Virus genome (UHGV): UHGV-1607792
DNA: 16,625 nt
Origin: a virus
Strand: one strand, 5' to 3'
The translations under genes were made by a program, and so were the position numbers. This document shows positions 5,863 to 16,625 of this stretch, in pieces. A model generated the notes under the pieces. That model searched no databases, was not told where the DNA came from, and saw nothing but the letters and a program-made list of their open reading frames with translations. Position 1 is the first letter of the stretch. Each line of letters opens with the position of its first letter.

Positions 5863-7473
5863 TCAACATTCTACGTACGAGCCATCAGTGTTTTCAACAA
5901 GCACTTTGATGCTCAAGCCTACATCTGTGCCAGCTTGGCTTCTGATAAGTGGCACAATGTCTTTTGATTGTGGCGCAATGTTGCCCATATTATCAATGTG
6001 CTCGTCATTGCCAATGAACTGCACATCTACTGATTTGATGACATCAAGCTCTTCAAGTTTTGCGATTGCAGCAGAACGACTAACGAATGTCGATGCATTT
6101 GACCATGAGTCTTCTACAAATGCTTTTGCAGCATCAAGCAATTGCTGCTTGACGTCTTCTATGTTTTGCAGTACTGCAGTCTTTTTGACAAGAATGAGCA
6201 TTTGATAAAATTCAAGCTGCACAGTGTCAAATTGCACATCAGTTAGCAACACATAGTCACCAGTGTTTTCGATAGCATTGTTCAGATATTGTCTATCTGT
6301 AGAGTCGATAGTGAATTCTGCTATTGGCAATGACCAGTAGTCATACACTATTGAGCCTGCTTTGACATACTTGTCTGCAATGTTGGGCACCAACACGACA
6401 TGAATTGTTTGAGTCTCTGTATTTGACCAGACATCAAGTATCTTGTACTGACCAAAGCGTGACATGAATGCTCTGATTGAATCTGCTGAGTGCAACACAA
6501 GTGCCCTGTTAATTGAGCCTGCATGTGAACGTATAGATTCGATGTCTTCACCATTGTAACCACCTACAATGTCTGTCAACTGTTCAATGACTAATACACC
6601 CTTTGGACTTACTGCAGTAGTGTTTGCATCATACATGCCATTGACCCATTCAAATGTTGCATCATTGTCAATCAAAATGTTTCCTGCATAGCCCTCACAT
6701 GCAGTGTATTCTACATTGACGACTGCATTTTGTGCAGGAATTTGACCAGCAGTACCATTGCCAAACACAATCTGTAGTTTGCCATCATATGACCAGCGTT
6801 CAATGTACCCCTTGCTGTATCGGTCCATTTCATCAAACCCTGCATAGCGAGTCCACAGCTCATTGCCAACTGTGACAGTCAATGAATCTTCAGATACAAT
6901 CAAGTTGCGTTCTTCGATAGTGAATGTTGTCATTGACTCACCATCAGAAATATATTGCTGAGACTTGCGTTCACCTTGTCTAACTGCGAATTCATATCGT
7001 ACACCAGTCAACTCATTGTTGATGTTGAGTTGCGCAAAGTCTTGATGCATATCGATGTAGTACATCAGCGAGTTCTCTTTGCATTTAATTGCTGCGTATC
7101 GTTTAATGAACACAGTTGGACCAAGCTCTTTGACTGCGTCATATGAAAAACTCAATGCAATTTTGCCCGATGCTGCAATGCCACCAACACATTTGTAACA
7201 TGCAAGCTGTGCAAGTCCTCGTACAGATGCGGTCTGTTCTGCAGTAAGCAAGTTGTTTTCTTTTGTGCCTACTACAATTTGCGTAAAGATGAGTGACGCA
7301 AGTTCTCTGAAACTCTGAACAAGAATTCCAAAAATTGTGTACTTACCATATTGTTTCTTTGTAGAGTTCAGCAAATTCTGCAGCCAAGTATCTATAGACT
7401 GTGACACACCTGAATATGACATCTGCATTTTCTGCATCCATGTCATATTGTCACGAGTGTTATTTGTGCGCAT
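5863..7473 (-). CDS. hypothetical protein, 536 aa
   Basis: ORF track starts at a TTG (7596) and translates the tandem repeats and terminator palindrome; the first ATG is 41 codons in (MRTNNTRDNMTWMQ...), at 7471-7473. A-rich leader without SD. Stop TGA at 5863-5865. Confidence 0.8.
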   Translation of the reverse strand: MRTNNTRDNMTWMQKMQMSYSGVSQSIDTWLQNLLNSTKKQYGKYTIFGILVQSFRELASLIFTQIVVGTKENNLLTAEQTASVRGLAQLACYKCVGGIAASGKIALSFSYDAVKELGPTVFIKRYAAIKCKENSLMYYIDMHQDFAQLNINNELTGVRYEFAVRQGERKSQQYISDGESMTTFTIEERNLIVSEDSLTVTVGNELWTRYAGFDEMDRYSKGYIERWSYDGKLQIVFGNGTAGQIPAQNAVVNVEYTACEGYAGNILIDNDATFEWVNGMYDANTTAVSPKGVLVIEQLTDIVGGYNGEDIESIRSHAGSINRALVLHSADSIRAFMSRFGQYKILDVWSNTETQTIHVVLVPNIADKYVKAGSIVYDYWSLPIAEFTIDSTDRQYLNNAIENTGDYVLLTDVQFDTVQLEFYQMLILVKKTAVLQNIEDVKQQLLDAAKAFVEDSWSNASTFVSRSAAIAKLEELDVIKSVDVQFIGNDEHIDNMGNIAPQSKDIVPLIRSQAGTDVGLSIKVLVENTDGSYVEC

Positions 7474-7498
7474 ATCAGTTAATTTGTTTGTATATGTA

Positions 7499-7572
7499 TT
7501 CGAATGTGCACACATGAGAATAGGTCTCTTCGAATGTGCACATATGAGAATAGTCTCTTCGAATATGCGCAC
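7499..7572. repeat. 2.5 tandem copies of a 30-bp direct repeat; each unit stacks three palindromic cores (TTCGAA, TGTGCACA, CATATG)
   Basis: Unit 1 at 7499-7528: ttcgaatgtgcacacatgagaataggtctc. Unit 2 at 7529-7557: ttcgaatgtgcacatatgagaatagtctc. Partial unit at 7558-7572: ttcgaatatgcgcac. Lies between a terminator and the ATG of the 536-aa gene. Confidence 0.8.
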
Positions 7573-7603
7573 AAAAAGAAGAGCTTGCATATGCAAGCTC
7601 TTC
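7573..7603 (-). terminator. intrinsic (Rho-independent) terminator candidate
   Basis: Perfect 26-bp palindrome gaagagcttgcat|atgcaagctcttc (7578-7603), giving an 11-bp stem and ATAT loop, followed on the minus-strand transcript by UUUUUGUG. About 43 nt downstream of the 127-aa gene stop. Confidence 0.7.
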
Positions 7604-10402: not shown

Positions 10403-11299
10403 CTACAGTGTTCCGCAAAGTAATTCACGTAAATCCATGCCAGCTTGTGTGCTGTATTGAGCAATCATGTTGCGTTCAGCTTCAGACATGCTCCAATAGA
10501 TTTTGTGAAAACTGCGTTTGATAATTGTATGAATGCCAGATGTGCTACAGTTGAGCTTCTTTGCAAGTTCTGCATGAGTTAGCAAATCAGCATCGCCAAG
10601 GCCATATACATGCGTAAGTACGAGCTTTTCATTTTGTGTGAGCTGTTCAAATGCTCTTTGCAGAATCTTTGTGTTGCGTTTGTGAGCATCCTCGATTTCA
10701 AGAACTTCTTGACCTGTTTTGAAGTCTGACCTCAAATCATTCTGAACTGGCGACCATGTATCGCCATCTTTGTCAAGTGTAGTGTCATCTTTGCTGGTGA
10801 ATTGTTTGACTTCAAGAACTCTTTCATATGCTCCACGAATACCAGTAGATAATTGTTGACTTGTCAGATTGAGTTCGTCAAGCACATATTTCTTAATCCA
10901 AGGATATGCATATGTGCTAAACTTTGCTTCACGAACTCCTGCAGGCAATACGCCTTCTACGTAATTCTTGGCTGCTATTGACAATCCAAGATTGCCTGCT
11001 TGAATGACATCATCCAATGGAACCGAGCGTTTGCCAGATGCGAACCATAAGCTTCGTGCAACTGATATGACCAATCTTAAACAAGATTTGATAAGAGCTT
11101 CACGATTTTCTTGAGTCTTCTTGAATCGAGTAACATCACAATATCGCTTTGCAGTAGCCAGCGATTTGACTTCTTCAGGAGTAAGCTCATTCTCCATCCT
11201 CATTTGCTTGAGCTCTTCCTTTGTGTATAGACGTTCTCTTGTGATTCTACCTACGTCCTTTACGTAGCCTTGATTGATTTGTGAATTTGAACCTGCCAT
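10403..11299 (-). CDS. sigma-70 family RNA polymerase sigma factor, 298 aa
   Basis: Region 2 signature: LRLVISVARSL...LDDVIQAGNLGLSIAAKNY...KFSTYAYPWIKKYVLDEL, compared from memory with the E. coli RpoD segments LRLVISIAKKY / LIQEGNIGLMKAV / KFSTYATWWIRQAI. Region 4 helix-turn-helix: LTHAELAKKLNCSTSGIHTIIKRSFHKI. ATG at 11297-11299, TAG at 10403-10405. Flanked upstream by a 133-bp AT-rich gap and downstream by a GC-rich hairpin terminator. Confidence 0.85.
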   Translation of the reverse strand: MAGSNSQINQGYVKDVGRITRERLYTKEELKQMRMENELTPEEVKSLATAKRYCDVTRFKKTQENREALIKSCLRLVISVARSLWFASGKRSVPLDDVIQAGNLGLSIAAKNYVEGVLPAGVREAKFSTYAYPWIKKYVLDELNLTSQQLSTGIRGAYERVLEVKQFTSKDDTTLDKDGDTWSPVQNDLRSDFKTGQEVLEIEDAHKRNTKILQRAFEQLTQNEKLVLTHVYGLGDADLLTHAELAKKLNCSTSGIHTIIKRSFHKIYWSMSEAERNMIAQYSTQAGMDLRELLCGTL

Positions 11300-11432
11300 G
11301 GTTGTGTAACTTATTTAGTTTTAATTTGTTATATAAATTTAATCATTTTTTGTCACATATGAAAATGTTTTGCACATTATTTTCACATAAAGTGTAAAAA
11401 AGTTATGAACATTTTGTTAACACATGTAGACA
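11300..11432 (-). promoter_or_regulatory. AT-rich intergenic region upstream of the sigma gene; candidate promoter and repeated TTTTG(T)CACAT elements
   Basis: 133 bp with no ORF. On the minus strand: GTGACA (plus 11351-11356), 17 nt, TATAAC (plus 11328-11333), about 25 nt upstream of the ATG, resembling a sigma-70 -35/-10 pair (5/6 and 5/6). Three spaced copies of ttttg(t)cacat(a/t) on the plus strand. The promoter assignment is inference only. Confidence 0.4.
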
Positions 11433-13016
11433 TCAAACCATTTCATTCAACTTGTCGACATTCTTTTTAGCGTCTGCACTTTGTACAAATGCATAGACAT
11501 TATCATAGACTTTGCTAATTGCTGCATCTGTGTAATCATAGAAGCTGTGTCGAGTTCTTGAAGTTCTGCCACCTTTGATGCCAAGTGATGCTTTGTCAGA
11601 ATCTGATGGTTTCCAATATGTTCGCCCAAACCCCGTAGATAGAATCATACTTTCCACGCCAGACCTATCTCGTGGCATAGCATGTTTCAAATGGCAAGTT
11701 ACAATGAAGTCAGTTGGAAAGTCATCATAGCCAAGCTCACTTGATGCAGGTTGAATGTCAGTCTTCGTTAAGATAAGATTGCCAATGCTTGCTATGGGTC
11801 GAAGTGGGTTTCCTAATAGCAAATGCCATTCTCCGATGGCGTCGCCCTTTAGCAAGCTATTCATAACAGGAATTGCTGGTCGACCAATAGTGTTCAAGAA
11901 TTTCGCAACAGCAAAACGTTGAAATGCAAGTTTAGCAATCTGCTGCAATTTTTGTTTTGCTGCTTCTTTTCCACCTCCGCTTGCATTCATAATGTTTTGA
12001 GCAATGCCTTTGAAGAAGTCTGTGATTGAGTTGAATGAACCATCAAGCGCATCTTGAATGATTGTAGATTCAAGTTCAAGTGCTTTGTTCCAGAACACTG
12101 ATGGCTGTCCGCCAACCCAGTAGCGACCACCTCCCCAAAAACGCGCGTCATTGTATGTGCATTGCATCACATTGCTCAACAAGTCAAGCATTGCTGTTTT
12201 GGGATTGATTCCATCAATCGACTTCAATGAATAAAAGAATTTGACAGTCAATTCATGCTCAAAGTTCAAGCCGACATCACGAATATGCGTTTGTGTAATT
12301 GAATCAATTGGGCCATAGACTTTATTGTGGTCATGTGTAGGGTCTATTGACAGTCGTGCTTTGCCACGCATTTGGTCTTTTGCATACACTGGGTCCATCA
12401 ATTTTGCCACTCGGCCCATCCAGCCACTAATGCCATAATTGCCTCCACTGTCACCACGCATTTCGCCTTGCTCCAATGCAGCAGACAATTCTTTCCAACG
12501 CATGCCAAAACTGAAGCTCAACAAATCTTCAAGTTTGTTGTTTTCACCATCAAACCACGTAATCATATGAGCGATTTCAGGTGTTTGCTGAACTGTTGTG
12601 TTGAAGATGTCATCTTGACATGGCTCAGCAAATCTGCGCAATGTTATGAGTCTGTTGTTTGGGATTTGACCAAGAAATCTGCAATATGCAAAGTCTTGCC
12701 AATCGTATGTTGATGCGCCAATGGGGTTGTTAATGATATTTGCTGCAGTAGGCGTCAAGTATTGCAGGCCTTGCAAGTCTTGGTCAAAGTACACAGTTTT
12801 GCCATCAGGCAATTGCGGTGCTGCAAATAGATTCCATGCATTGAACAAAGACTGCACACCTTGTTTTGACGCATCTTCTGCGCCACGAGGCATATCAGCA
12901 TTGAGTTTCTTTTCATAAAACCCATGCTCATAGTCTGTCTCTTGTGCAAATGCACCAGTCAGTGTGCTACTATCTGCATTGAGCTTATTGTCTTTTGGCG
13001 GAGCTATTGTAGCCAT
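11433..13016 (-). CDS. hypothetical protein, 527 aa (Gly/Trp-containing; function unknown)
   Basis: ORF track starts at a TTG (13046); the first ATG is 10 codons in (MATIAPPKDNKL...), at 13014-13016. TGA at 11433-11435. Confidence 0.8.
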   Translation of the reverse strand: MATIAPPKDNKLNADSSTLTGAFAQETDYEHGFYEKKLNADMPRGAEDASKQGVQSLFNAWNLFAAPQLPDGKTVYFDQDLQGLQYLTPTAANIINNPIGASTYDWQDFAYCRFLGQIPNNRLITLRRFAEPCQDDIFNTTVQQTPEIAHMITWFDGENNKLEDLLSFSFGMRWKELSAALEQGEMRGDSGGNYGISGWMGRVAKLMDPVYAKDQMRGKARLSIDPTHDHNKVYGPIDSITQTHIRDVGLNFEHELTVKFFYSLKSIDGINPKTAMLDLLSNVMQCTYNDARFWGGGRYWVGGQPSVFWNKALELESTIIQDALDGSFNSITDFFKGIAQNIMNASGGGKEAAKQKLQQIAKLAFQRFAVAKFLNTIGRPAIPVMNSLLKGDAIGEWHLLLGNPLRPIASIGNLILTKTDIQPASSELGYDDFPTDFIVTCHLKHAMPRDRSGVESMILSTGFGRTYWKPSDSDKASLGIKGGRTSRTRHSFYDYTDAAISKVYDNVYAFVQSADAKKNVDKLNEMV

Positions 13017-13042
13017 ATCTTCAAATGTATTTAGGATATGTA

Positions 13043-13081
13043 CCAAACAAACAAAAAGCTTGACTTATTCAGTCAAGCTTT
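13043..13081 (-). terminator. terminator-like hairpin overlapping the stop codon of the 163-aa gene
   Basis: 11-bp perfect stem aaagcttgact (13055-13065) / agtcaagcttt (13071-13081) with 5-nt loop, followed on the minus strand by UUGUUUGUUUGG. The TAA of the 163-aa gene is at the stem/loop junction. Confidence 0.5.
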
Positions 13082-13556
13082 GTTCAGAAAGTTCAATAAT
13101 TTGTGTTTCGTATAGTCGTCTTAGTTCATCAAATCTTACACAGTTTTTGTCATACAGTGTAGCAAGACCTTGCAATGCTTGTTGTTTGCTTGTCCATACA
13201 ATGTCAGCAGTCAAATCCCATAACCACTTTTGTGCATAATAGAACTTCCAGTCATGCCAAAATGTTTGCGTAGTGATTTGTTGTTCTTTATCATCAATGT
13301 AGACAAAGTGATGCGTTGGATTGCCACTTTCAAGGTCTACAAATCTGAATGTTTTGTTTGCTACATGCTTAGCAATCCATTCGTCAGATGCAATGACTTC
13401 TTGCAATGCACATTGATAATAGTAACGCTTTGCAATGTCAAAGTGACGAACAACTACGCCACGAAACAATGTCCATAGCCATGGCTCTTCTTCTGAACTT
13501 CTAATCCAATAAACTTCTTGATTTACTGGTAGAAAATCGTAGTGAACGAGGTCCAT
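13065..13556 (-). CDS. hypothetical protein, 163 aa, Trp-rich
   Basis: ATG at 13554-13556, 3 nt after the TAA of the upstream gene; its own TAA (13065-13067) sits inside the loop of a terminator-like hairpin. Confidence 0.7.
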   Translation of the reverse strand: MDLVHYDFLPVNQEVYWIRSSEEEPWLWTLFRGVVVRHFDIAKRYYYQCALQEVIASDEWIAKHVANKTFRFVDLESGNPTHHFVYIDDKEQQITTQTFWHDWKFYYAQKWLWDLTADIVWTSKQQALQGLATLYDKNCVRFDELRRLYETQIIELSEQSLTE

Positions 13557-14310: not shown

Positions 14311-16625
14311 TTATCGTATGATGAATGGTTTGTTGGTATCTTCAATAATCATTGAGCCGATGCCATGTAACTCTTGAGTAACCTCGACAGATACGTCTTG
14401 TGCAGTGTTGTACGAGCACTTGAATGCTGCAACTCGACTAAATGCGTCAATGTCTGAGTAACTGAGTTCATCGACTTGCATTGAGATTTCACCAATTGCT
14501 GGCGTAGTCTTTGATGGTGTCATTGTGATGTCATGCAGCCAGCCCGGATTGCCAACTATGACTGCTGTCAATGATTCGCCATCAATTGGGTTGATGATTT
14601 CATAGTTGAAGCTTAAAGTCTTTGCAGTATCATCAGTTGTTGCCGATGCAGGTGTAATGTTGATTGTTGTTACGCCCTTAGCAGCTTGAACAACTTGTGC
14701 TGTGACATCTTGAGCATTGATGTGAGAGAACTTAACTGAACAACTGCGTTGTTCTGTCGTCAAGTTGCGGTCACATTCAATAGTCAAGTAGCCCCTGCCA
14801 GTATTATCGTCATATTCGAAGTTTGTATCGGTAAATGTGCCATCATTGTCAAGCACTGCATATGACAACTGCTGGCCTGCAATTGGGTTGCCAACAGTAA
14901 TTTCGAACTGTACTTGAGTATCTGTCGACTTCAATTGAGCATTCATTGGTTCGACAGTTATCGTTGACATGCCTTGAGCTGCTTGTGTGATGCTGACCGT
15001 TACATTGTCAGCAGTCATGTATGACAGTCTCAAGTATAAGTTACGAGTAGCTGTTGCAGTGTTGATGTCAAGCGCAAATTGTATTGTGCCGGCTGACATA
15101 TTAACTACAGGTTCGCCAACAAAGCCAGAGCCCTCTGTCGTAACTGTCAGTGTTTCACCTTCAATAGGGTTGATGATGCTAAAGTTAACTGTGAACGAAC
15201 CGCCATTAGCTGCTGCGTTGATTGTCAATGGTTCGGCATTGATGACTGTAGCTTCTTTAGCAGCTTGAGTAAGCAAGACTGCTACATTGTCAGCAGTTGG
15301 ATATTGCAGTACAATATTTGCTGTACGAGCAGTTGTTTGCAATGTCTTGTCATAATCAAATGTAATCTTGTCATCAGCAACTTGAACGTTGTGAATCCAG
15401 CTTTCTGTTGCATATGCAGTGACTGCTGCACCAGCAAAGCCATTACGAATTTGATATGCAATTTCAGCTGAACCACCTGCTGCATTGAGTGACATAGAGC
15501 TTGTAACAATGATTTCTGGCCTTGTTGAAACACCTGTACTGTATTGAACTACAGATGCAATTACACGAGGCTCAAATATGACAGCATTTGCAGAGCCGCC
15601 AAATGTAGGTGTTGCAATCACATAGATTGGCCAAACTCCACTTGATGCGACATTACGTAAGATTGCTTGATAATGCAGTTCATTGCATGCATCTTGCAAT
15701 TCACTCCACGTTTTTGTAGTGTCAATTGATGTCAAGCATGCTGGCAATACTGCGCATGTTGATGGCTTATCCGCATCAATGGGCATTGCATTGCCACCTG
15801 CTATTGGCTTGTAGCTCAAGTCAACTTTGACTGATGCATAGCCATTGCCATACACAATGAATGGTATAGTGATATCGAACAAAATATCGACTGTTGCAGG
15901 CATGTTCAGATATGCAGGCAGCGGTATGAGTGTTTGCATTGCTGTCGTGCCTGGTACGTGGTCATCGAATGATTCAACATACACAGGTGGTGTCAAGTCA
16001 TCTTTATGCGCATATTCTGCGTGAGTGTGGTCTGAATGCGACACTGTGCTTGCATAACCAGAACCACCAAAGTTCTTATTAAATGCAGAGCCCTTTGCTT
16101 CTTCAGTTAATCTGCCAGAGCCATCATATGACAATACTGTATTTGATGCACCGACACCTGCTGCAAGATGATTTGAGCCATCAATGAAGACATGTTTGTA
16201 TTGACGTTCAAACAAATGAGCATCAAAATTGTCAAATATCGAATTGAACAACTTTTTGACTGCAGATGCTGTAGGCAGATGTTTGTTTGCATTTGCGCCA
16301 TCGATAATGATGCTTGACCAATTGTCTGAGCTCTTGAAGATGCTAAGAAGCATATCAACAACTTTGCCAGTAGCATCTGTGCCAAGAACACTTGCACCAG
16401 GCAATTTCATCAATTGTAAGTCGACTGTTGCAGCAAGTTTAAGCAGCTGTTTTGTCAATGTCAGAATGTCTGTGACAGCACCAGCATCTGACAATGCAGC
16501 AATGCGATATGACTGATTGATGAGTTGCGCAAACTTATACGCACGAATGAATGACTCTCGCTTTGCTTCTGCATCCAAGCCTTTTGCCAAGAACAACTCA
16601 TCATATTTCAGATTTGCATATGACA
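14311..16625 (-). CDS. large repeat protein with four tandem BACON-like/Ig-like domains at the C-terminus; 5' end lies beyond window end
   Basis: The frame is open to the last base of the window; the track's start at 16596 is a TTG and upstream codons continue in frame. TAA at 14311-14313. Four homologous 50-100 aa repeats, each ending (T/N)A(D/Q)(D/N)V(T/S/A)V.(V/I/L)TQ(A/E)(A/L).G, with internal NPI(E/A/D)G and R-T/S-A motifs. Confidence 0.8.
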   Translation of the reverse strand, partial: SYANLKYDELFLAKGLDAEAKRESFIRAYKFAQLINQSYRIAALSDAGAVTDILTLTKQLLKLAATVDLQLMKLPGASVLGTDATGKVVDMLLSIFKSSDNWSSIIIDGANANKHLPTASAVKKLFNSIFDNFDAHLFERQYKHVFIDGSNHLAAGVGASNTVLSYDGSGRLTEEAKGSAFNKNFGGSGYASTVSHSDHTHAEYAHKDDLTPPVYVESFDDHVPGTTAMQTLIPLPAYLNMPATVDILFDITIPFIVYGNGYASVKVDLSYKPIAGGNAMPIDADKPSTCAVLPACLTSIDTTKTWSELQDACNELHYQAILRNVASSGVWPIYVIATPTFGGSANAVIFEPRVIASVVQYSTGVSTRPEIIVTSSMSLNAAGGSAEIAYQIRNGFAGAAVTAYATESWIHNVQVADDKITFDYDKTLQTTARTANIVLQYPTADNVAVLLTQAAKEATVINAEPLTINAAANGGSFTVNFSIINPIEGETLTVTTEGSGFVGEPVVNMSAGTIQFALDINTATATRNLYLRLSYMTADNVTVSITQAAQGMSTITVEPMNAQLKSTDTQVQFEITVGNPIAGQQLSYAVLDNDGTFTDTNFEYDDNTGRGYLTIECDRNLTTEQRSCSVKFSHINAQDVTAQVVQAAKGVTTINITPASATTDDTAKTLSFNYEIINPIDGESLTAVIVGNPGWLHDITMTPSKTTPAIGEISMQVDELSYSDIDAFSRVAAFKCSYNTAQDVSVEVTQELHGIGSMIIEDTNKPFIIR
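14362..15405 (-). repeat. tandem array of four protein-level repeats (BACON-like beta-sandwich modules) inside the 761-aa CDS
   Basis: Approximate residues 398-745 of the track protein. Repeat ends: ...NVAVLLTQAAKE / ...NVTVSITQAAQG / ...DVTAQVVQAAKG / ...DVSVEVTQELHG. Repeat starts: ATVINAEP / MSTITVEP / VTTINITP. Diverged at nucleotide level. Confidence 0.6.

Follow-up and report, generated by a model that had tools for sequence, protein, structure and literature searches.

Four divergent BACON domains at the C-terminal end of a candidate tail-fibre protein from a probable PAU-like phage

Tandem repeats of the immunoglobulin-like (Ig-like) BACON domain adjoin the tail genes of crAss-like phages and of two further gut lineages, and these tail-associated arrays of gut phages have been proposed to act as host binders (de Jonge et al. 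2019, PMC6949934). BACON has also been reported to be the Ig-like module found most often in adherent gut phages, among them an unassigned group whose predicted morphology is myoviral (PMC13370021). Here we describe an array of four divergent BACON domains at the C-terminal end of a large protein encoded in a stretch of viral DNA from UHGV virus genome UHGV-1607792 (16,625 nucleotides; hereafter the window, to which all coordinates refer). A candidate host-recognition or adhesion protein is our best reading of this gene product: we propose, with a probability of about 0.6, that it is a tail-fibre-type protein whose terminal BACON array mediates adhesion to glycans at adsorption.

The locus resembles the arrays of de Jonge and colleagues in that four contiguous BACON units lie in one large open reading frame (ORF) among tail genes (a tape-measure-like gene, PHROG 4372, and a baseplate-wedge gene, PHROG 219) of a gut-type phage, in that the units are related to BACON domains of Bacteroidales, and in that at least part of the array seems to have been gained by horizontal transfer and not by duplication in place, as in two of their three lineages. 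It differs in several respects. The crAss-like phages are podoviruses, whereas the present sequence probably comes from a large myovirus of the PAU-like kind, whose wedge and neck genes are of T4 type; the earlier arrays comprise five to eight domains, whereas ours has four; our repeats match the Pfam profile PF13004 weakly and show no match to PF19190 (BACON_2), the crAss-type profile, in a Pfam scan of the window protein; and the array is here fused to a defined tail-fibre N-terminal family, at the extreme C-terminus. When compared to the BACON domains of Bacteroidales lipoproteins and of BoGH5A (PDB: 3ZMR), the repeats belong to the same domain family, with a W...N...R...Y...Q pattern that they keep in part and an Ig-like beta-sandwich. 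However, the bacterial domains follow a lipid anchor and precede a catalytic or binding module, often N-terminally, whereas those described here form the C-terminal end of a predicted virion protein and have diverged from PF13004 to just below the Pfam threshold.

The gene lies at the end of the window and is incomplete:

14311-16625, minus strand: 3' part of the fibre gene, encoding residues 366-1135, with the stop codon at 14311-14313 (delimited by the open frame and by full-length relatives)

A preliminary description of this DNA had placed a large protein at these positions; the ORF exists, but it is read from the minus strand and the window truncates it. The ORF list gives it as 761 amino acids (aa) from a TTG codon (14311-16596, minus strand). 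As the frame runs uninterrupted up to the window edge at 16623, yielding a translation of 770 aa, the TTG at 16596 does not mark the true start, the gene continuing beyond the edge. One full-length relative (P0001) has 1135 aa and is 95% identical across the whole ORF, and further 1135-aa copies with 93-96% identity are encoded at two loci (L004 and L005) on two 175-kb IMG/VR contigs (IMGVR_UViG_3300045988_149023 and _152288). Given these lengths, the window holds residues 366-1135 and the 5' third of the gene lies outside it. What had been called the N-terminal 400 residues is thus the middle of an 1135-aa protein, although both strings quoted from it (YGNGYASVKVDLSYKP and HSDHTHAEYAH) do occur in the translation. 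Across the four close variants the ratio of non-synonymous to synonymous substitution rates (dN/dS) is 0.06-0.15 in every region; such purifying selection throughout indicates a working gene, and the same comparison gave no sign of diversifying selection.

The last ~385 residues of the protein divide into four modules of 87, 94, 99 and 104 aa, after which comes a short tail, the four-repeat region corresponding to residues 736-1135 of P0001 (pLDDT, predicted local distance difference test):

15253-15513, minus strand: BACON-type repeat 1 (window residues 371-457; Pfam BACON, 17.6 bits; 7 strands, pLDDT >90)

14971-15252, minus strand: BACON-type repeat 2 (window residues 458-551; Pfam BACON, 17.7 bits; 8 strands; alignment A5)

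14674-14970, minus strand: BACON-type repeat 3 (window residues 552-650; Pfam BACON, 19.7 bits; 8 strands)

14362-14673, minus strand: BACON-type repeat 4 (window residues 651-754; no Pfam match of its own; 8 strands, pLDDT 80-88)

14314-14361, minus strand: 16-residue C-terminal tail IGSMIIEDTNKPFIIR (pLDDT ~50), the same in four relatives bar one position

With only these 16 residues following repeat 4, the array forms the distal end of the protein. Homology among the modules was assessed by shuffle-calibrated Smith-Waterman comparison, in which all six pairs surpassed 1000 shuffled controls (z = 5.8-14.1; 0/1000 shuffles reached the observed score); a BLASTP self-comparison of the protein did not pick up the repeats. 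A MAFFT alignment of the modules displays invariant N, G, D, R, A, V and Q columns. The conserved arginine and glutamine are present in all four, the tryptophan in repeats 1 and 4 (replaced by phenylalanine in repeats 2 and 3) and the tyrosine in repeats 1, 2 and 4, such that repeat 1 retains the W, R, Y and Q. Repeat 3 carries a mid-domain insertion, and repeat 4, the most divergent of the four, carries two insertions. The four homologous modules of the preliminary description are therefore real, and its motifs hold in part. The ending motif is present in every repeat in the form V-x-V-x-(T/V)-Q-x-x-(G/E), with VQ in place of TQ in repeat 3 and E in place of G in repeat 1; NPI-x-G is found in repeats 2-4 (NPIEG in repeat 2) and is replaced by NGFAG in repeat 1; and from R-T/S-A only the arginine is common to all (RTA, RNL, RSC and RVA). 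All four sequenced variants have exactly four repeats. A hidden Markov model (HMM) of the unit detects four domains in the fibre protein, with no further BACON unit in the window or in a related 23-kb locus (L001), and neither of these contains a paralogue of the fibre gene.

In Pfam scans the sole family matched by the repeats is BACON (PF13004), with 23.4 bits for the whole window protein and 23.9 bits for the repeat region against a gathering threshold of 25 bits; repeats 1-3 match it separately at 17.6-19.7 bits. A weaker, likewise sub-threshold match to CBM_35_2 (E = 0.011) appeared in the whole-protein scan only. An exhaustive phmmer search of 1.84 billion representatives returned 393 matches, and the results reported here rest on the best 150 of these. 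Most fall on the repeat region, with more than 100 relatives (best E = 4.5e-56, over seven matched stretches), and 98 matches to the whole query have E <= 1e-10. The repeat-region relatives are lipoprotein-like, bearing N-terminal lipoprotein-type signal peptides (MK...SC), and BACON scores above threshold in 49 of the 49 that were scanned. When their segments aligned to the window repeats were examined separately, BACON was recovered in 31 of 31 and BACON_2 (PF19190) in 15 of 31. The alignment of the array (A5) reveals the common pattern GG...Y.I.NP..G ... W ... N.....R ... Y ... Q, and the profile derived from it matches residues 17-94 of PDB 3ZMR_A (E = 3.2e-7), which is the BACON domain of BoGH5A from Bacteroides ovatus. 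Likewise, the unit HMM recovers repeat 3 (i-E = 4.8e-10) and repeat 4 (9.1e-13), both of which were outside its training set. A word-indexed homologue search found only the 95% relative with the whole protein and only a 56-aa fragment with the four-repeat profile.

The predicted fold is in agreement with these matches. AlphaFold2 (AF2) modelled A5 with a mean pLDDT of 89.4 as four all-beta domains of 7-8 strands each. Foldseek searches against the PDB recovered tandem Ig-like arrays, with titin, cadherins and ciliary proteins on top; these confirm the Ig-like sandwich and do not separate BACON from other Ig-like arrays. Against BFVD, the top six matches include gut-virome phage proteins described as "Binding domain, N-terminal" (the Pfam description of BACON) and "BACON domain-containing protein", and proteins described as "Cellulase" and "Tail protein" also ranked high. 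Together with the phmmer relatives and the 3ZMR match, the model identifies the four modules as divergent BACON domains, as had been suggested from the motifs; the best profile match is to BACON rather than to an unrelated fold, and the repeats adopt Ig-like beta-sandwiches in the model.

The remainder of the protein would place this array on a phage fibre. Residues 26 to ~350-500 of P0001, mostly outside the window, match the N-termini of about 29 representatives of 405-1626 aa in the phmmer search. A tblastn comparison further aligned the N-terminal 330-470 residues with gp266 of Sphingomonas phage PAU and with a hypothetical protein of Chryseobacterium phages MA9V-1 and MA9V-2, at 23-28% identity. 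The parts common to this family are a helix, a collagen-like G-x-y run and a globular domain; seven G-x-y triplets are present here (GRIGETGDRGLPGFDGYRGNR), and the run is kept across the family. The C-terminal ends are different: they comprise Collar with S_tail_recep_bd (P0070), Collar (P0139), Gp10_C (P0131 and P0133), fn3 (P0148) or Head_fiber_dimeric-like repeats (P0013), and BACON is absent from PAU gp266, from MA9V1_016 and from the three closest metagenomic relatives. A constant N-terminal anchor with exchangeable C-terminal tips is thus borne out across the ~29 relatives. A constant N-terminus with an exchangeable tip is typical of phage receptor-binding fibres. The layout follows the same logic as T4 gp12/gp10, with the anchor at the N-terminus, the binding tip at the C-terminus and a shaft between them, and relatives sharing the N-terminal domain end in the corresponding Collar plus S_tail_recep_bd or Gp10_C domains. 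Unlike these, the protein described here lacks detectable sequence or fold similarity to gp12/gp10, and its tip is made of the BACON array and an orphan domain. Searches of the fibre protein against PHROGs gave no match, and a whole-protein sequence search against PDB chains gave nothing at E <= 1. The anchoring role that had been considered for the unassigned part of the protein would fall to this N-terminal domain, outside the window.

The genomic context is that of a tail module. Every substantial ORF of the window is read from the minus strand. The genes include one for a gp6-like baseplate wedge (PHROG 219), one for a neck or head-closure-like protein and one for a phage sigma factor; the GC (guanine plus cytosine) content is 40-43%. 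In the related locus L001 the fibre gene comes after two long genes, one of 1238 aa that is tape-measure-like (PHROG 4372) and one of 1267 aa. The order is thus two genes of more than 1000 aa, the fibre gene, two small genes, a ~530-aa gene and, further on, the sigma factor, with the tape-measure-like gene two genes upstream of the fibre gene and the wedge gene downstream. This order is kept in MA9V-1, and in PAU as far as the ~530-aa gene. PAU gp266 (875 aa) and MA9V1_016 (579 aa) occupy the same position, after the two >1000-aa genes and before the conserved ~530-aa gene; both have unrelated C-termini and are annotated as hypothetical. PAU is a jumbo myovirus with a T4-type capsid (PMC5646251). 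As part of the joint explanation favoured here, the phage is probably a large myovirus related to PAU and to the Chryseobacterium jumbo phages. This tail-module setting, together with a family ending in tail-fibre receptor-binding domains, supports the candidate host-recognition or adhesion role that had been proposed from the repeats.

Three further regions precede the array within the window:

16189-16623, minus strand: helical region (window residues 1-145; DSSP helices in the AF2 model, pLDDT <50)

16006-16101, minus strand: fibre-shaft motif EAKGSAFNKNFGGSGYASTVSHSDHTHAEYAH (window residues 175-206; one copy, with an H-x-H pair)

15514-16005, minus strand: orphan domain of ~164 aa (window residues 207-370), between the shaft motif and the repeats

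The helical region contains the strings VLGTDATGKV and HLPTASAVKKL, which are common to some relatives of the N-terminal family, and the phmmer alignments of relatives extend to about residue 500 of P0001; it is possibly a shaft or coiled coil, as judged from the model. The ~30-aa unit that follows occurs in tandem, 3-5 times, in three other proteins (P0054, P0084 and P0108), of which P0108 ends in a Peptidase_S74 tail-fibre chaperone domain, and its H-x-H pair is similar to the HxH motifs that are described as binding metal in T4 gp37 and other fibres (PMC11705849). An enzymatic domain had been considered for the part of the protein that contains the HSDHTH string; we rejected an enzymatic reading of this string since other proteins carry the motif as a repeated unit of the fibre shaft, and it appears to be a fibre-shaft HxH motif. 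The orphan domain has no match in Pfam, PHROGs or the PDB, and no homologue beyond the 93-96% relatives among the best 150 of the 393 phmmer matches. The AF2 model is unusable in this region (pLDDT ~25), and a word-indexed search with residues 208-372 gave no match, a weak negative in that it also missed P0001, which is >90% identical. Of all short stretches, the one that varies most between the four close variants also falls in the orphan domain (15775-15813, minus strand; P0001 residues 636-648), where it reads KPIAGGNAMPIDA, KPITSGNATHIDS, RPVSGGAATQIDA or KPIASGNATPIDA, with three different residues among the four variants at each of positions 640 and 646. This stretch may be an exposed loop.

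The array appears to have a bacterial source. Against bacterial BACON units, repeat 1 reaches 44 bits and repeat 2 reaches 37 bits, compared with 26 bits between the two; repeats 3 and 4 each find a near-best match in the other. As the first two are closer to bacterial units than to one another, the scores suggest that the array or single domains were captured from bacteria and then diverged, perhaps with one duplication inside the array. Relatives of the closest bacterial protein (P0003) come from metagenome-assembled genomes of Muribaculaceae, Rikenellaceae, Alistipes and other Bacteroidales from animal guts, which makes a gut Bacteroidales host plausible on sequence grounds.

Taken together, these observations are compatible with the following model. 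The N-terminal collagen-like anchor domain would trimerise and dock on the baseplate, and each chain would then contribute a helical shaft, the HxH motif, the lineage-specific domain and four BACON domains. The HxH motif might hold a metal ion on the trimer axis. In such a trimer, which is suggested by the collagen-like run, three flexible four-domain BACON arms would be displayed at the fibre tip, taking the place of the T4 gp12/gp10-type tips of other members of the N-terminal family. The arms could make weak, multivalent, low-affinity contacts with surface glycans; the likeliest target would be the capsule or another polysaccharide of the bacterial host, in the first reversible step of adsorption, and mucin glycans may possibly be bound as well. 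Glycan adhesion of this kind has been put forward for the tail-associated BACON repeats of crAss-like and other gut phages (PMC6949934).

Several observations weigh against this proposal. The BACON threshold is narrowly missed, and repeat 4 lacks a Pfam match. AF2 modelled residues 1-740 of P0001 poorly (pLDDT 49.6), and this model has no structural match in the PDB, such that attachment to the baseplate, the trimeric state and the geometry of the fibre are inferred from relatives and gene order; that the fibre trimerises and docks on the baseplate accordingly stays a prediction from sequence. The fibre gene lies upstream of the wedge gene, which is not the classical post-baseplate position of fibre genes. 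The repeats evolve with a dN/dS of 0.09-0.15, with no sign of diversifying selection. The searches returned no isolate of the phage itself, and the only cultured relatives infect Sphingomonas, Chryseobacterium and, according to the literature, Tenacibaculum. Finally, the BACON domain of BoGH5A, the one bacterial BACON that has been tested biochemically, bound no substrate that was tried, and binding of carbohydrate or mucin is disputed even for bacterial BACON domains (both in PMC9853417).

These points bear differently on the alternatives. The most serious of them, which we regard as a minority possibility, holds that the BACON arms serve mainly in retention at mucus or epithelium, with the bacterial receptor being recognised by another protein or by the orphan domain. 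BACON was first predicted to bind mucin glycans, a role that has also been suggested for phages (PMC9853417). Gut-phage BACON proteins displayed on phage K1F confer increased adherence to epithelial cells, and mucosal sites are enriched in BACON phages (PMC13370021). The purifying selection and the lack of hypervariable patches in the repeats, unlike in many receptor-binding tips, would also be consistent with it. Yet the Ig-like domains known for mucus adhesion, as in T4 Hoc, decorate the capsid and not a baseplate fibre tip, the array sits where relatives carry gp12-type receptor-binding domains, and a mucosal habitat has to be assumed. A somewhat more doubtful proposition combines elements of both: a captured host-lipoprotein array would have replaced the gp12/gp10-type tip as the primary receptor-binding element in a PAU-like short-tail-fibre scaffold, recognising the same glycans as the BACON proteins of the host and functioning both in adsorption and in mucus retention.

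It is unlikely that the BACON domains are passive spacers or stabilisers without a ligand, the role proposed for the BACON of BoGH5A on the basis of its failure to bind any tested substrate, which was read as indicating a spacer or linker (PMC9853417, PMC6949934). Ig-like domains are indeed common passengers in phage structural proteins. However, a terminal array with only 16 residues past its fourth domain has nothing to hold, and all four variants have kept four domains under purifying selection. Still more improbable is that the fibre is attached to another part of the virion (the head, the neck or the sheath), where the BACON array would decorate the particle. The Head_fiber_dimeric-like domains of P0013, the non-canonical position of the gene and the failure of the N-terminal model to match any solved baseplate protein would fit such a location. 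Against this, the C-terminal ends of other members of the family are Gp10_C, Collar and short-tail-fibre receptor-binding domains, and the gene lies between tape-measure-like and wedge genes, with synteny kept with PAU and MA9V-1. We accordingly favour the tail-fibre-type protein with a glycan-binding terminal BACON array.

The neighbouring genes offer some additional observations. A sigma-70-family factor (10403-11299, minus strand; PHROG 351, E = 4.7e-25) is encoded within the structural gene block, and MA9V-1 has a similarly placed sigma-factor gene. Two of the genes between it and the fibre gene code for proteins of 537 aa (11433-13046, minus strand) and 163 aa (13065-13556, minus strand; matching PHROG 28303); their counterparts, PAU gp269/gp268 and MA9V-1 019/018, were matched by length and position alone. 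In L001 an extra 425-aa gene (16282-17559 of that locus; PHROG 3339, weak DUF7487) is inserted between the ~530-aa and sigma-factor genes and looks like a homing endonuclease; as the window has only 133 bp there (11299-11433), this would represent a presence/absence polymorphism of a mobile endonuclease. Upstream of the wedge-like gene on the minus strand, the region 7463-7603 contains three direct copies of ~25 nucleotides (nt), TTCGAATGTGCACA(C/T)ATGAGAATAG, spaced 29-30 nt apart, along with a 13-nt inverted repeat and a perfect 26-nt palindrome (GAAGAGCTTGCAT-ATGCAAGCTCTTC). This may be a promoter or operator region, and the TTG-started ORF at 5863-7596 probably overruns the true start.

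What the locus adds to the known BACON arrays is modest: it is an array in a PAU-like large-myovirus lineage, fused to a tail-fibre N-terminal family whose other members carry gp12/gp10-type tips, and made of BACON domains divergent enough to escape the Pfam threshold. It also supports Bacteroidales as a likely host group of this uncultured PAU-like lineage. BACON arrays are among the commonest Ig-like modules of gut phages, and the candidates for what they bind are host polysaccharide, mucin, epithelium or nothing at all. With its anchor family, relatives bearing classical tips in the same position and a confidently modelled terminal array, this protein provides a clean architecture in which to choose between these candidates.

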